This document shows positions 23,672 to 31,720 of a DNA stretch of 63,965 nt, piece by piece. Source of the DNA: a virus; UHGV virus genome UHGV-0122909; one strand, 5' to 3'. Position numbers and translations under genes: made by a program. Positions within the stretch are counted from its first letter, which is position 1. Each line of letters starts with the position of its first letter. The notes below the pieces were generated by a model. That model did not search any database. It saw only the letters and a list, made by a program, of their open reading frames with translations, and was not told the origin of the DNA.

Positions 23672-23759
23672 AATTGCTCTAATGTATTGCTATTTCTTTA
23701 ATCGAGGGTATTATATTCGACGTTGATTAGTTGACATGGGCTAATCAGTAGGTGACAGG

Positions 23760-24298: not shown

Positions 24299-25492
24299 GT
24301 GACCTGGGACGATCACAAGAAGAATTTTGCTCGCCTGGCGCGAGATGGTGGTTACACCATCGCACAATATGCCGCCGAGTTTAATCTCAACCCAAACACC
24401 GCACGTCGTTATCTCCGTGCATTCAAAGAAGACACCGGAACAGCGGACAGCCGTAAGCCAAATAAGCCTGTCAGAAAACCACTAAAAAGCATGATCATTG
24501 ATCACGCTAATGATCAACGTGCAGGTGATCACATTGTGGCTGAAATGGCTGAAAAACAAAGAGTTAATGCTGTTGTCAGTGCCGCAGTCGAGAACGCGAA
24601 GCGCCAGAATAAGCGCATAAATGATCGTTCTGATGATCATGACGTGATCACCCGCGCCCACCGGACCTTACGTGATCGCCTGGAACGCGACACCCTGGAT
24701 GATGATGGTGAACGCTTTGAATTCGAAGCTGGCGATTACCTGATAGATAACGTTGAAGCGCGGAAGGCCGCGCGCGCTATGTTGCGTCGGTCCGGGGCTG
24801 ATGTTCTGGAAACCACTCTTCTGGAAAAGTCTCTCTCTCATCTCCTTATGCTGGAGAACGCCAGGGATACGTGTATTCGCCTGGTGCAGGAAATGCGCGA
24901 TCAGCAAAAAGACGATGATGAAGGTACTCCGCCTGAATACCGTATCGCGAGCATGCTAAACAGCTGTTCCGCGCAGATAAGCAGCCTGATCAACACCATT
25001 TACAGCATCCGGAATAACTATCGAAAAGAAAGCCGGGAGGCGGAAAAGCACGCTTTGTCTATGGGACAAGCTGGCATTGTTAAGCTGGCATACGAACGAA
25101 AGCGTGAAAATAACTGGTCAGTGCTGGAAGCAGCTGAATTCATTGAGGCGCATGGCGGGAAAGTGCCGCCCCTGATGCTGGAGCAAATCAAAGCCGATCT
25201 GCGTGCTCCTAAGACCAATACCGATGATGAGGAAAGGCAAACAGCCGTCGGTGGCCCTTCTCTTGAAGATCTGGACAAAGTTGCGCGAGAACGGGCCGCC
25301 AACCGCCGCGCCGATGCCGCATTGTGGATTGAGCAGCGTAGGGAAGAAATCGCCGATATCGTTGATACAGGCGGTTATGGAGATGTTGATACTGAAGGTG
25401 TATCAAACGACCCATGGCTGGAACAAGACCTGGACGAAGACGAGGAGGAAGACGAAGAAGTTACCCGCAAGCTATACGGGGATGATGATTAA
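24299..25492 (+). CDS. pacA: Terminase small subunit PacA
   Basis: 397 aa, GTG start, with the pac GATC cluster inside the gene and a C-terminal acidic tail. P1 synteny. Confidence 0.85.
24490..24652. other. pac packaging site (clustered TGATCA hexamers)
   Basis: Two clusters of GATC-containing hexamers (ATGATCATTGATCACGCTAATGATCA...GGTGATCAC and AATGATCG..GATGATCATGACGTGATCAC) about 120 bp apart inside pacA. Confidence 0.8.
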
Positions 25493-26976
25493 TGGCCAGA
25501 AGTTGCGTAACGGATCCACGTTGGCGCGAGCTGGTGGCGCTATATCGTTATGACTGGATTGCTGCCGCTGATGTTTTGTTCGGCAAAACACCTACCTGGC
25601 AGCAGGATCTGATTATTGAGTCTGTGCAGGAACAGGGTAGCAAGACATCTGTTTCGTCTGGTCACGGTACCGGGAAATCAGACATGACTTCTATCATGAT
25701 CATGTTGTTCATAATCATGTATCCCGGTGCCCGCGCCATTATCGTTGCGAACAAAATTCAGCAGGTAATGACCGGTATATTCAAGTACATCAAGATAAAC
25801 TGGGCTACTGCCACCAGCCGTTTTCCATGGCTTGCTGATTATTTTGTTCTGACAGAAACCGCTTTCTATGAGGTTACTGGTAAAGGTGTATGGACTGTAG
25901 TACCGAAGGGCTTTCGTCTGGGAAGTGAAGAAGCTCTCGCCGGTGAACACGCAGATCATCTTCTGTATATTATCGATGAAGCCTCCGGTGTCAGTGATAG
26001 AGCTTTCGGTATCATCACCGGTGCTCTTACCGGACAGGATAACCGCATCTTATTGCTGTCACAGCCTACACGCCCAAGCGGCTATTTCTACGATACACAC
26101 CATAAACTGGCCAAGCGTCCTGGTAACCCTGATGGCGTTTATACGGCGATCACGCTTAACAGTGAGGAATCACCGTTGGTAACGCCAGCATTTATCAAAA
26201 TGAAGCTGGCGGAGTACGGCGGGCGTGATAACCCTATGTACATGATTAAGGTACGCGGCCTATTCCCTAAATCACAGGATGGCTTCCTTCTTGGACGTGA
26301 TGAGGTTGAACGTGCAACGCGGCGGAAAGTCAAGATTGCCAAAGGATGGGGCTGGCTTGCATGTGTGGACGTTGCTGGTGGTACGGGACGGGATAAGTCC
26401 GTTATCAATATCATGATGGTGTCCGGCCAGCGAAATAAACGCCGTGTAATCAACTATCGAATGCTGGAATACACAGACGTTACAGAAACGCAGCTTGCCG
26501 CCAAAATTTTCGCAGAATGTAATCCTGAGCGATTCCCAAATATCACCATAGCGATAGACGGCGATGGCCTGGGTAAAGCAACGGCGGATCTGATGTACGA
26601 GTATTATGGTATTACCGTACAGCGTATACGCTGGGGTAAAAAGATGCATAGCCGTGAAGATAAGAGCCTGTACTTTGATAAACGTGCTTATGCCAACGTT
26701 CAAGCCGCAGAGGCCGTAAAATCTGGTCGTATGAGACTGGATAAGGGTAATGAAACTATTGAGGAAGCGTCGAAAATCCCTGTAGGGATTAACTCCGCAG
26801 GTCAATGGAAGGTGATGAGTAAGGAGGATATGAAGAAAAAACTCAACCTGCACTCACCAGACCATTGGGATACATATTGTTTCGCTATGCTGGCGGATTA
26901 TGTTCCCCAGGATGAAGTGCTTAGCGTCGAAGACGAAGCGCAGGTTGATGAAGCTCTGGCATGGCTTAATGAATGA
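25492..26976 (+). CDS. pacB: Terminase large subunit PacB
   Basis: 494 aa with Walker A-like GHGTGKS and a terminase-type nuclease C-terminus. Start overlaps the pacA stop. Confidence 0.85.
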
Positions 26977-26978
26977 AT

Positions 26979-26995
26979 ATTTGCTCTAATAAATT
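26979..26995. promoter_or_regulatory. C1 repressor operator-like site
   Basis: TATTTGCTCTAATAAATTG matches the P1 C1 operator consensus ATTGCTCTAATAAATTT. Confidence 0.55.
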
Positions 26996-27127
26996 GTGTT
27001 TTTTAACTACCGATGTTACATTGAGCCTGACCTCTTGCGCCTTGAGGCATTTTCGGTTTATGCTTATCAGGCACCTCATTAAAACGGGTGCCGGGATTGG
27101 CCTCCCGCTTAAGTCTAAGGCGATACA

Positions 27128-27152
27128 GACGCCGCTCGCGTCTTTTTTTTGT
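27128..27152 (+). terminator. Rho-independent terminator after pacB
   Basis: AGACGCcgctcGCGTCT followed by T8. Confidence 0.55.
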
Positions 27153-27315
27153 ATCGGCGTACACGCACACCTCTACAATGGTGGGCTGTATGGGGCTACC
27201 TTCGGGTAGGCTGGTTACCTTGGACGCCAGTAAGGCCAACTCCGTACAGTCCACCGCCAGCAAGATTGGTCTCTTCTGCGGTGGTTACATACCAACGTCT
27301 AAGGAGGCTGCCAAT

Positions 27316-27537
27316 ATGGCTACTATCCCTACCCCAACTCATCCTGAATTTATCTGGCGCTTTTACTCCTGCCAAAAACGTCACTATCACTTCGTTATTG
27401 CACCGACAGAAGATGAGGCCCGCTCTCAGCTTCCTGACGCCCCATGTATTTTCTCTGCCCGTTTTTCCACTGATTCACGCAATTCTCTCAGTTACTGGTG
27501 CCTCCCTGTTAACGCTTCTGCTCAGGAGGGACTATGA
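27316..27537 (+). CDS. Small hypothetical protein with strong RBS
   Basis: AAGGAGG 7 nt upstream of the ATG. 73 aa MATIPTPTHPEFIWRFYSCQKRHYHFV..., ending at the start of the antirepressor-like gene. Confidence 0.45.
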   Translation: MATIPTPTHPEFIWRFYSCQKRHYHFVIAPTEDEARSQLPDAPCIFSARFSTDSRNSLSYWCLPVNASAQEGL

Positions 27538-28652
27538 GAACGTCATTAGTCACCCGTGAAGAGATGATCGAGGCAATTGAACAGCACACTGCCTGTATCA
27601 GTACCAGGGATATACCAGGCGTTATTGCCAACTACTTCATGATCACCAAACAACTTTACCGGAGAAAGGACAAGAACGCGGTTCACCGTATCCTGTTGTC
27701 TGATATCCGCGAATACCTGCTCGAACAGGGTCATCTGAATTACGCAACCGCCGCAGCCGAAGCACGCAAGGAGGCACACAGAATGAAAGCAACTAACGTT
27801 AAATCAGAAAAAATTCATGCACCTTCAGTTCAAGAATCGGAGCTGGTGGTTGTTCAGAATCAGTCTGATGAAATTCCCGTTCTGGAATGGCAGGGAGTGC
27901 GTGTAGTGACAACCGAGACTCTTGCTAGAGGGTATGGGACAGAAACAATCCGTATTCGCCAAAATCATCATGAGAACAAAGTACGCTTTGTTGAAGGGAA
28001 GCACTTTTTCAAAGTTGAAGGAGAATCATTGCGCGAGTTGAAGCACAGAGTAGCTTTAAACTACTCTGTAAAAATTGCTCGCAATGTTCGCTCACTCACC
28101 CTCTGGACAGAACGCGGCGCAGCCCGCCACGCTAAAATGCTCGAAACCGATCAGGCATGGGCATTCTTTGAAAAACTGGAAGACAGCTACTTCCGACAAA
28201 AAGAACAGCAACCGATCGCAATCCCCCAGACGCTTCCTGAAGCCCTACGCCTGGCTGCCGAACTGGCTGAACAAAAGCAACTTCTGGAACAGAAAGCCCA
28301 CCAGCTAAATCAGCAGCTGGTGGCCGCCGCTCCTAAAGTCGATTTTGCCGACCGGGTATCAGTAGCTAAAGGGATCCTGATTGGGAATTTTGCAAAGGTT
28401 GTTGGACTTAAACAAAACGCGCTGTTTGTCTGGTTACGGGAGAACGGCATCCTGATAGCGTCCGGTGGACGTAAAAATGTGCCGTTCCAGCAGTACATCA
28501 ACGCGGGGTATTTCACGGTGAAAGAAGTGGTGCTGGATGATGAAGATGGCTACCAGATACGGTTGACGCCTCAATTAACGGGTAAAGGCCAGCAGTGGTT
28601 GACGCGTAAACTGCTCGATGCTGGCTTGTTAAAACCGGTGGCGGCTGAATAA
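27534..28652 (+). CDS. Antirepressor-like protein (ORF6N/KilA-N-type N-terminus, Ant-type C-terminus)
   Basis: 372 aa. Central VVTTETLARGYG...HFFKVEGESLRELK and C-terminal ...DFADRVSVAKGILIGNFAKVVGLKQNALFVWLRENG are typical of phage antirepressors. Domain names are from memory. Confidence 0.6.
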   Translation: MRTSLVTREEMIEAIEQHTACISTRDIPGVIANYFMITKQLYRRKDKNAVHRILLSDIREYLLEQGHLNYATAAAEARKEAHRMKATNVKSEKIHAPSVQESELVVVQNQSDEIPVLEWQGVRVVTTETLARGYGTETIRIRQNHHENKVRFVEGKHFFKVEGESLRELKHRVALNYSVKIARNVRSLTLWTERGAARHAKMLETDQAWAFFEKLEDSYFRQKEQQPIAIPQTLPEALRLAAELAEQKQLLEQKAHQLNQQLVAAAPKVDFADRVSVAKGILIGNFAKVVGLKQNALFVWLRENGILIASGGRKNVPFQQYINAGYFTVKEVVLDDEDGYQIRLTPQLTGKGQQWLTRKLLDAGLLKPVAAE

Positions 28653-28684
28653 TAGAAGAATGCCCGGTTGATGCCGGGCATAAT

Positions 28685-29536
28685 TTATTGCGCGCTTTCG
28701 GGGTTGTCGTTTACTGGCTGCCCCTTCTTGGTTTTACGGCTGCGCGTAACTGATGCGGCTGACTTAACCTTTTTCTCTTCGCGAGTGATGGCAATTTGTT
28801 TTTTTACATTTTCAATATCTGCCAGGCGATATATTTTTGCTTGCGGCCAGCGGTCGCAGATGATCGGTTCTATGGAGTCATAAAGGCTAAATTTTGCTTT
28901 TTCGAATTCACCGTTGATGATAATTCCATCACGGAGAGTTTCATCGCAGATAAACACGCCACACAGTGGCACATGGTAACTAACTGATTTACCATCATTG
29001 TAGTTAGGGCTACTGGAAATGTAGTGGACGCGCAGCATTGTTTCGCTAAAGCCGTGTACGCGCATACGGAATTTTTCATCCTCCGGGTACTGCTTCATTA
29101 GCTCTTTTGTTGCTTCCAGGTTCTCTATGTATTTCGCACTGTGCTCATTGATCCCCGCGCTTTTTTGGATGCGAATGTCCTTATCAATCAGATGAATAAT
29201 GCGGCCAGCGGTCATGTTGACGCTGTTCACAGCTTCTGTCTGATAAGTTGTAACCTTACGCACACCGCGAAGGATGTTAGGCACTGGATATAAAATAGTC
29301 TTTGGGATATTGAGGTCTGGATACTGTTCCAGTTCCCGCGCCATTAAAGTCCATTTATCAATTTCAGCCTGAATGCTGTCCGTTTCTTTGAACGGCAGAA
29401 CGACAACCGGGCGAACAGGACGACCGTCGCTGGCGGCATCAACGTGTTGGGCGCGTGCAACAGCTTTTTTTAGAAAGAGATCCCTGAAGCTGACGAACTC
29501 CTGGTACAGTTGTTCGCCGTAGACATAATTTATCAT
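28685..29536 (-). CDS. c1: C1 repressor of lysis
   Basis: 283 aa, the size of P1 C1, downstream of coi in P1 synteny. Several C1 operator matches in the window. Confidence 0.85.
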   Translation of the reverse strand: MINYVYGEQLYQEFVSFRDLFLKKAVARAQHVDAASDGRPVRPVVVLPFKETDSIQAEIDKWTLMARELEQYPDLNIPKTILYPVPNILRGVRKVTTYQTEAVNSVNMTAGRIIHLIDKDIRIQKSAGINEHSAKYIENLEATKELMKQYPEDEKFRMRVHGFSETMLRVHYISSSPNYNDGKSVSYHVPLCGVFICDETLRDGIIINGEFEKAKFSLYDSIEPIICDRWPQAKIYRLADIENVKKQIAITREEKKVKSAASVTRSRKTKKGQPVNDNPESAQ

Positions 29537-29646
29537 TGATCCTCCTCCAGAATTGACATGGCCAACAACTCACAGCGGATTACACTGGGAGTTGTTGGCC
29601 ACCATTATAGAAGGATCCAACGAAAATAATAGATTTATTAGTGCAT

Positions 29647-29856
29647 TTATTGTGAGTCTGGCTGGTTAGTGGCCATGAGATATTCGATTGTGTCAGTGAG
29701 ATCATCCAGGTCGTCTTGGGTGATGCGGTACTCCTGATTGGATATCTTTGAGTAGTGTTCAGCAATGGCGCGGGCAGCGTCGGTTTCGGCGGGGTCTACA
29801 GATAAAGCGTTAGAGCAATGTCTAACGTCGTCGATGGTTGGTGGAATGAAAGCCAT
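29647..29856 (-). CDS. coi: Coi (C1 inactivator)
   Basis: 69 aa ORF immediately upstream of c1 on the same strand. Confidence 0.65.
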   Translation of the reverse strand: MAFIPPTIDDVRHCSNALSVDPAETDAARAIAEHYSKISNQEYRITQDDLDDLTDTIEYLMATNQPDSQ

Positions 29857-30096
29857 AATTATGCCTCACTGTATTGACAACACAGAGCCTGAAGCTCTGA
29901 CCTACTGTTTCACCCATGATCCATGCTGGGGTAATCTAACAACATTGCGCTGTGTGTAAGATGAGCAATGCATAGCTGTAATGCCGTTGTATAAGGTTTC
30001 CCTGTTTGCTCATTTCCTTCTGAGCCGCTCTACAACGCTGAAGACACATTAAATAGTGAATCCAAAGTCGTATTACGAAACGGCGGCAAAACTATA

Positions 30097-30113
30097 ATTT
30101 ATTAGAGCAATTG
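30097..30113. promoter_or_regulatory. C1 operator-like site
   Basis: Reverse complement of AATTTATTAGAGCAAT matches the operator consensus. Confidence 0.5.
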
Positions 30114-30175
30114 TCAAACAACTATGAAAAACAATCCAGTTTTTGGCTGGTGGAGTGGGATTTTTCTCTCAAAAT

Positions 30176-30192
30176 TTATTGCTCTAATAATT
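30176..30192. promoter_or_regulatory. C1 operator-like site adjacent to loxP
   Basis: AAATTTATTGCTCTAATAA. Confidence 0.5.
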
Positions 30193-30237
30193 CTTGATTT
30201 TTATGCGCAGCTGGACGTAAACTCCTCTTCGGACCTA

Positions 30238-30688: not shown

Positions 30689-31720
30689 ATGTCCAATTTA
30701 CTGACCGTACACCAAAATTTGCCTGCATTACCGGTCGATGCAATGAGTGATGAGGTTCGCAAGAACCTGATGGACATGTTCAGGGATCGCCAGGCGTTTT
30801 CTGAGCATACCTGGAAAATGCTTCTGTCCGTTTGCCGGTCGTGGGCGGCATGGTGCAAGTTGAATAACCGGAAATGGTTTCCCGCAGAACCTGAAGATGT
30901 TCGCGATTATCTTCTATATCTTCAGGCGCGCGGTCTGGCAGTAAAAACTATCCAGCAACATTTGGGCCAGCTAAACATGCTTCATCGTCGGTCCGGGCTG
31001 CCACGACCAAGTGACAGTAATGCTGTTTCACTGGTCATGCGGCGGATTCGAAAAGAAAACGTTGATGCCGGTGAACGTGCAAAACAGGCATTGGCGTTCG
31101 AACGCACTGATTTCGACCAGGTTCGTTCACTCATGGAAAATAGCGATCGCTGCCAGGATATACGGAATCTGGCGTTTCTGGGGATTGCTTATAACACCCT
31201 GTTACGTATAGCCGAAATTGCCAGGATCAGGGTTAAAGATATCTCACGTACTGACGGTGGGAGAATGTTAATCCATATTGGCAGAACGAAAACGCTGGTT
31301 AGCACCGCAGGTGTAGAGAAGGCACTTAGCCTGGGGGTAACTAAACTGGTCGAGCGATGGATTTCTGTCTCTGGTGTGGCTGATGATCCGAATAACTACT
31401 TGTTTTGCCGTGTCAGAAAAAATGGTGTTGCCGCGCCATCTGCCACCTGCCAGCTATCAACTCGCGCCCTGGAAGGGATTTTTGAAGCAACTCATCGATT
31501 GATTTACGGCGCTAAGGATGACTCTGGTCAGAGATACCTGGCCTGGTCTGGACACAGTGCCCGTGTCGGAGCCGCGCGAGATATGGCCCGCGCCGGAGTT
31601 TCAATACCGGAGATCATGCAAGCTGGTGGCTGGACCAACGTAAATATTGTCATGAACTATATCCGTAACCTGGATAGTGAAACAGGGGCAATGGTGCGCC
31701 TGCTGGAAGATGGTGATTAG
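30689..31720 (+). CDS. cre: Cre tyrosine recombinase
   Basis: 343 aa MSNLLTVHQNLPALPVDAMSDEVRKNLMDMFRDRQAFSEHTWKMLLSVCRSWAAWCKLNNRKWFPAEPEDVRDYLLYLQARGLAVKTIQQHLGQLNMLHRRSGLPRP..., recognised as Cre. About 450 bp downstream of loxP. Confidence 0.98.
   Translation: MSNLLTVHQNLPALPVDAMSDEVRKNLMDMFRDRQAFSEHTWKMLLSVCRSWAAWCKLNNRKWFPAEPEDVRDYLLYLQARGLAVKTIQQHLGQLNMLHRRSGLPRPSDSNAVSLVMRRIRKENVDAGERAKQALAFERTDFDQVRSLMENSDRCQDIRNLAFLGIAYNTLLRIAEIARIRVKDISRTDGGRMLIHIGRTKTLVSTAGVEKALSLGVTKLVERWISVSGVADDPNNYLFCRVRKNGVAAPSATCQLSTRALEGIFEATHRLIYGAKDDSGQRYLAWSGHSARVGAARDMARAGVSIPEIMQAGGWTNVNIVMNYIRNLDSETGAMVRLLEDGD

Follow-up and report, generated by a model that had tools for sequence, protein, structure and literature searches.

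We analyzed a window of 63,965 nucleotides from the virus genome UHGV-0122909, which is a P1-type phage-plasmid. In phage P1 (AF234172) the stop codons of pacB and c1 lie 24 bp apart, whereas in the window the spacer between them measures about 1.7 kb (26977–28684). This insert begins immediately past the pacB stop codon and ends at the c1 stop codon. On its plus strand it carries a C1 repressor operator-like site, putative promoters, an isrK-type leader RNA, a C4 antisense RNA gene, downstream C4 target sites, an icd-like gene and an ant gene. A first-pass annotation of this DNA had stated that P1 has no such gene between pacB and c1, and this was correct for the pacB–c1 site. Elsewhere in P1, however, the insert has a homologue along its whole length, i.e., the immI region (c4-icd-ant1/2). 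The parts follow the same order as in immI of P1 and P7: C1 operator, promoters, a1/b1, c4, a2/b2 with b2 at the icd ribosome-binding site, icd and ant1/ant2. The leader (27071–27148), the C4 RNA (27174–27261) and the Icd identity of the small protein were absent from the first-pass annotation. Anatomy, homology, RNA structures, complementarity and co-variation, start/stop overlap and protein domains were all derived from the sequence.

The small open reading frame (ORF) of 73 residues (27316–27537, plus strand) is preceded by the ribosome-binding site AAGGAGG (27301–27307), as had been noted before. Judged by sequence, its product is clearly a homologue of the host cell-division inhibitor Icd and a putative cell-division inhibitor itself. 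It falls into the Icd-like family NF033153 of NCBIfam (49.8 bits against a cut-off of 25, E = 2.6e-13), matches phrog_1426 (E = 1e-45) and shares 80% identity with P1 Icd, which is also 73 residues long. As in P1, the icd stop codon overlaps the start codon of ant in the tetranucleotide ATGA (27534–27537).

The ant gene (27534–28652, plus strand) encodes 372 residues of Ant1 type. It had been called antirepressor-like, and a domain check bore this out. ORF6N (PF10543, residues 116–202) scored 70.1 bits (E = 2e-19) and ANT/KilAC (PF03374, residues 260–361) scored 107.9 bits (E = 4e-31), i.e., both were above their Pfam gathering scores of 27.8 and 25.3, respectively. Ahead of them lies an Ant1-type N-terminal extension (residues 1–84), and phrog_63, "anti-repressor Ant", matches the protein over its full length (E = 5e-131). 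An internal in-frame ATG at 27783 with AAGGAGG upstream aligns with the P1 ant2 start; at the sequence level, the coupled icd–ant arrangement with nested Ant1 and Ant2 starts is hence present. Overall, the protein is 56% identical to P1 Ant1. The N-terminal 84 residues and KilAC are conserved, and the KilAC end of Ant is nearly identical. The middle, in contrast, is an ORF6N domain in the window and unrelated to the middle of P1 Ant1, where Pfam gives no match.

Two RNA genes precede icd. The leader RNA (27071–27148, plus strand) matches the isrK model RF01394 of Rfam over its full length, i.e., model positions 1–77 including the terminator, with 60.8 bits against a gathering score of 50. The terminator that the first-pass annotation had seen after the operator, a terminator-like hairpin at 27127–27143 followed by T8 on the plus strand, forms the 3' end of this leader. 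The C4 antisense RNA gene (27174–27261, plus strand) likewise matches RF01695 full length (model positions 1–87, 75.9 bits against a gathering score of 45). Its putative mature RNA, at approximately 27180–27256, has the same predicted fold as P1 C4 (−41.8 kcal/mol), with the b' segment CCTTGGAC (27218–27225) in the loop of hairpin 2 and the a' segment AGGCCAA (27233–27239) in an unpaired bulge.

Both segments are complementary to all four targets in the window, which like them lie on the plus strand. Upstream in the same transcript are a1 (TTGGCCT, 27097–27103), in a leader hairpin loop, and b1 (GTCTAAGG, 27113–27120), although here both are contained within the isrK-type leader. The downstream sites (27266–27307) comprise a2, b2 and the Shine-Dalgarno sequence: a2 (TTGGTCT, 27266–27272) forms 7/7 pairs with a' and b2 (CGTCTAAGG, 27296–27304) forms 9/9 pairs with b', each including one G-U pair. 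The b2 site overlaps the Shine-Dalgarno sequence AAGGAGG of the icd-like gene, and a2 and b2 are laid out as in P1, for which the annotation describes pairing of a'/b' with a2/b2, b2 being at the icd ribosome-binding site, and with the upstream a1/b1. The leader subtype differs: in the window it is of the isrK/P4 seqA type, in P1, P7 and D6 of the c4-a1b1 type (RF03163).

Protein-level calls also overlie these RNA genes. The Pfam family Phage_ASH (PF10554) matched an in-frame upstream extension of the icd ORF with E = 7.6e-10 (window 27088–27537, plus strand, especially 27145–27351), and this extension runs straight through the C4 gene. In hundreds of plasmids, PGAP has placed a 39-residue "ash family protein" inside the C4 gene, e.g., at 1722–1841 of locus L008, an Escherichia coli A1_181 plasmid. 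At least these short "ash family" calls appear to arise from translating a conserved RNA gene. The family as such was not dismissed as purely spurious because an "ash family" ORF of 342 residues (1637–2665) spans the isrK and C4 genes in the P4-like satellite L012.

At the left edge of the insert, beginning 3 nt past the pacB stop codon, lies the C1 operator-like site TTTGCTCTAATAAATTG (26980–26996, plus strand). The first-pass annotation had reported this site at 26979–26995, i.e., one base too far left. The site has two mismatches to the consensus ATTGCTCTAATAAATTT (15/17 positions match), matches the annotated OrepL of P1 at 16/17 positions and aligns with P1 Oc4/Op51. Allowing up to three mismatches, the window holds eight C1-operator matches against 0.42 expected from shuffles. 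The seven others, with one to three mismatches, are at 23673, 29631, 30095, 30178, 32214, 42539 and 46388; by position, those near 29631–30194 correspond to P1 Oc1ab, Oc1d and Oc1e around c1, coi and cre. The repressor itself is 99% identical to P1 C1 (282/283 residues, BLASTP). Inserts at the same site in RCS47, JL22 and A1_181 have the same operator sequence as the window, but no C1-operator match was found upstream of related cassettes outside P1-type elements or in phage D6.

A putative distal promoter (26994–27022, plus strand; −35 TTGTGT, 17-nt spacer, −10 TACATT) was assigned from homology. It matches 7/12 consensus positions, its −35 element overlaps the operator, and it is the positional homologue of P1 P2c4 (formerly P51a). 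A putative proximal promoter would lie at 27035–27070 (plus strand), just upstream of the leader start, and may be either TTGCGC-18 nt-TATGCT or TTGAGG-17 nt-TATCAG, the latter aligning with P1 P1c4 (formerly P51b). A similar promoter layout is kept upstream of the isrK-type leaders in loci L011 and L012. These assignments are tentative because they are based on alignment to the mapped P1 promoters and not on a consensus scan. At the head of the operon we thus have, by sequence match, a C1 operator overlapping a putative promoter that is weak by consensus.

To assess the RNA specificity, we compared 11 loci: four pacB–c1 inserts, the canonical immI of P1, P7, 673R5 and D6, two P4-like satellites from chromosomes and one further plasmid. 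All of them retain a common C4 scaffold, whereas a' and b' vary and make up 10 different combinations. Each locus has matching targets for a', and for b' at the b2 site, i.e., the targets change in step with C4; b1 was recovered in the seven isrK-type loci and lay outside the search window in the four P1-type loci. Cognate pairing in register reached 15/15 in nine of the ten tabulated combinations and 14/15 (7+7 pairs) in the O157 satellite (O157_chr), where b2 reads GTCAGAGG. Non-cognate combinations gave 6–13 of 15 pairs. P1 against P7, which are heteroimmune at immI (Venturini 2019, PMC6906374), gave 12/15. Against the targets of canonical immI in the sister phage 673R5, the window C4 formed only 6/15 pairs, and the canonical 673R5 C4 formed 10/15 with the targets of the window. 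Compensatory change at several sites is strong evidence, at the level of sequence comparison, that C4–target pairing is under selection. The antisense circuit hence looks functional, and the pairing counts indicate that the module has an RNA specificity of its own, distinct from that of canonical immI in 673R5. The E. coli chromosomal P4-like satellites L010 and L012 have a C4 scaffold nearly identical to that of the window and the same a'.

Phage D6 has two icd-like loci (L009, 1508–2692, and a second match at 75117–75193). One of them carries a P1-type c4-a1b1 leader and C4 (a' CTGTCAA, b' TCGTAAGT) and, downstream, a Roi-like antirepressor of ORF6N type without an annotated KilAC part.

The insert is widespread. 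At the same site it is found in vB_EcoM-673R5 (99.7% identity), RCS47 (92.7%) and JL22 (88%), each of which also has a canonical immI elsewhere in its genome; in 673R5 the two modules have different a'/b'. In PLSDB, 268 plasmids carry at least 80% of the interval and 314 have an empty P1-type junction. Among the 703 P1-like plasmids of PLSDB with pacB/c1 junction sequences, these 268 (approximately 40%) have a second immI-type module, which occurs in several RNA-specificity alleles. In 279 of 5,426 complete E. coli genomes, 80% or more of the interval is present, in most cases on a plasmid.

In the four pacB–c1 inserts compared, the operator is identical, the promoter region differs at one to three positions, and icd and the ant ends are mostly 90–100% identical. 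Divergence is confined to two blocks, i.e., the RNA block from a1 to b2 (27080–27300), with 45–80% identity among the inserts, and the ORF6N core (27900–28136, Ant residues ~123–201), with 50–86% DNA identity between the window and RCS47 or JL22. Despite this variable core, C1 is 99% identical across the window, RCS47 and JL22. Such a mosaic pattern in the sequences fits an exchange of specificity cassettes.

The insertion as such is common and already in print. In RCS47, pTZ20_1P and other P1-like plasmids, a pacB–c1 insertion of "two short hypothetical orfs" and an antirepressor gene has been described (Venturini 2019, PMC6906374), and the RCS47 record annotates "ant" between pacB and c1. 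Compared with the window, the RCS47 insertion has the same site, operator, promoter region and icd and an Ant of 89% identity, but another allele of both the a1–C4–b2 block and the ORF6N core. The RNA genes and the operator are omitted from the published account. In the literature searched, we did not find the insert described as a second immI that is complete, with operator, leader and C4 RNA of its own, nor did we find an account of an RNA specificity orthogonal to the canonical module or of alleles that differ in exchanged RNA and ORF6N cassettes. A 78-residue ORF (26973–27209, plus strand), listed as a hypothetical protein in JL22 (gp120), is likely one of the two published short orfs. It begins in the pacB stop region, spans the operator, the promoter candidates and the isrK-type leader, and is probably not a gene.

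Some copies of the cassette are damaged. In the E. coli A1_181 plasmid (L008, 2078–4385) the pacB–c1 cassette is cut off after the ORF6N part of ant and is followed by a Phd/YefM–RelE/ParE toxin-antitoxin pair and a Tn3-family transposase. One further copy is interrupted by an insertion sequence. Some P1-like plasmids (H68, i.e., NZ_CP073970.1, H76, H108 and H109) gave a single query match each, though the query includes the KilAC segment shared with canonical ant; they may carry the pacB–c1 module without a canonical immI.

With a probability of roughly 85%, we regard the interval 26977–28684 as an immI-type immunity module that is self-contained and the second of its kind in a P1-like phage-plasmid. 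It belongs to the well-studied P1/P7 immI kind: on the sequence level, every defining immI feature is present except genomic position and leader subtype. In P1, immI is located between sim and kilA-repL, in contrast to the pacB–c1 site of the window module. The differences from P1/P7 immI within the module are the isrK-type leader, the other a'/b' and the ORF6N middle of Ant.

Two further systems are related. For the Gifsy-1 isrK-orf45-anrP locus, experiments showed a short leader RNA as well as control of the antirepressor by a small ORF with ATGA coupling and by a leader terminator that is partly read through (PMC4825925). The window shares with it the isrK-type leader with an intrinsic terminator, which is leaky in Gifsy-1, the ATGA overlap of small-ORF stop and antirepressor start, and an RNA gene downstream of the leader, since the stable small RNA STnc1160 lies in Gifsy-1 at the position of the window C4. 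In contrast to Gifsy-1, the window has a 73-residue Icd homologue in place of the 45-codon orf45, a C1 operator ahead of the operon and antirepressor ends of P1 Ant type, and its host element is a P1-type plasmid prophage. The Rfam C4 and isrK models are said to detect relatives of the P4 immunity RNAs as well, C4 corresponding to CI and isrK to seqA (PMC10111431). P4 CI, however, causes premature transcription termination on replication genes and does not act on an icd-ant pair (PMC10111431, PMC4825925). Unlike in P4 immunity (CI, seqA/seqC), b2 in the window overlaps a Shine-Dalgarno sequence, as in P1.

By analogy with P1, P7 and Gifsy-1, from which we infer that RNA is processed, that translation is repressed, that C1 binds the operator and that Ant targets C1, the module may work as follows. 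Transcription would begin upstream of the leader, and C1 could repress the promoter candidate that overlaps its operator. Many transcripts would end at the leader terminator and yield a short IsrK-like RNA with a1 and b1, while read-through transcripts would include C4, icd and ant. C4 RNA would be excised from the transcript, and its a' and b' would pair with a2 and b2 and mask the icd ribosome-binding site. As icd ends within the ATGA at which ant begins, a block of icd translation would also stop Ant1/Ant2 synthesis. If C4 were absent or outnumbered, Icd and Ant would be made, and Ant would inactivate the C1 repressor. Such a shortage could arise when the phage enters a cell with a resident C4 of different specificity, or when C4 is titrated by the a1/b1 leader RNA. 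By this analogy the main control would be exerted by C4 antisense RNA on the icd ribosome-binding site and not by C1 alone. The proposal in the first-pass annotation of a C1-controlled accessory antirepressor is thus supported by sequence with regard to the C1 operator and the antirepressor but overlooked the C4 RNA. Since the a'/b' code of the window is not that of the canonical immI in 673R5, antirepressor synthesis would be under two RNA locks that are orthogonal to each other.

Several points weigh against this account of the module. The isrK/P4 seqA leader type means that control could be partly P4-like transcription termination and not translation alone. A consensus scan for sigma-70 promoters upstream of the leader found no convincing promoter, as both candidates fell below the threshold. 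The canonical immI of the UHGV-0122909 genome lies outside the window, and the presence of two modules in one genome was seen only in 673R5, RCS47 and JL22. Finally, binding and inactivation of C1 by Ant are assumed from homology, i.e., from 56% identity to P1 Ant1 in a protein whose middle domain is swapped, and on the sequence alone this ORF6N domain could direct Ant to a repressor other than C1.

The last point leads to an alternative that we consider unlikely but worth weighing: the RNA circuit operates as described, but Ant, guided by its swapped ORF6N domain, hits a repressor encoded by a different element in the same cell, e.g., a lambdoid prophage or P4-like satellite, with cross-induction or cross-talk between mobile elements as a result. 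The middle domain is entirely unlike that of P1 Ant1, and ORF6N is the only protein segment that varies among the pacB–c1 inserts, next to a nearly invariant C1. Moreover, the C4 scaffold and a' shared with the E. coli satellites L010 and L012 point to exchange with such elements. Gifsy-1 AnrP, which acts on the lytic operon of its own prophage (PMC4825925), may also be counted here. Against a foreign target, the N-terminal 84 residues and KilAC are far closer to P1 Ant1/2 than the middle is, and according to the P1 annotation Ant1/2 form a complex with C1. In addition, a C1 operator at the head of the cassette is confined to P1-type contexts, which links the module to the C1 circuit.

That the cassette is a functionless copy or relic of immI appears very improbable. 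The damaged copies, i.e., A1_181 without the KilAC part and the one with an insertion sequence, would agree with decay, but hundreds of copies are intact. In the window insert every ORF is intact, and the two start codons, the two Shine-Dalgarno sequences and the four target sites have all been kept; the compensatory changes of targets and C4 between alleles moreover imply selection on pairing. The first-pass annotation had also suggested an anti-defense gene. A role of the 372-residue protein as an anti-defense or defense-related factor in place of an immunity antirepressor would rest on two PADLOC matches to the candidate family PDC-S05 (E = 1e-5 and 5e-5) at residues 106–216, which contain ORF6N. 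These matches are weak, and PADLOC assigned the protein to no established defense or anti-defense family. Given that nothing but candidate-family matches was obtained, we rejected this role, which is hardly credible in view of the full-length phrog_63 match, the identity to P1 Ant1 and the position of the gene within a complete immI-type operon.

In comparison with the module assignment, a broader idea is clearly more speculative, and we put it forward as a tentative possibility only: P1-like phage-plasmids might have a combinatorial immunity code made of two antirepressors, each under an antisense-RNA lock orthogonal to the other, in which the a1–C4–b2 block and the ORF6N core are swapped as cassettes, partly with chromosomal P4-like satellites that share a'. 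If this were true, cassette exchange would create many heteroimmunity classes, a phage could overcome the immunity conferred by a resident P1 or P7 relative, since the one C4 of that relative would leave the second module unsilenced, and RNA cross-talk with satellites might arise. Among Enterobacteriaceae, P1-like phage-plasmids commonly carry resistance genes, and their immunity circuits decide on coexistence or displacement. If both modules work, the two-class "P1 versus P7" view of immI heteroimmunity would be too simple, and predictions of superinfection and incompatibility would have to read both C4 codes. The locus joins P1 immI, Gifsy-1 IsrK and P4 CI, which have been studied separately, in one easily manipulated cassette. 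For specialists this is an incremental point that introduces no new principle.

To the left of the insert lie pacA (24299–25492) and pacB (25492–26976), both directed rightward. To its right follow c1 (28685–29536, with its stop codon at 28685–28687) and coi (29647–29856), both directed leftward, and beyond coi cre (30689–31720). Pfam and NCBIfam contain no model bearing the name PacB or C1, and pacB and c1 were identified from the P1 annotation and by BLASTP. Between the convergent ant and c1 genes, a G+C-rich hairpin (28660–28681) is terminator-like on both strands.

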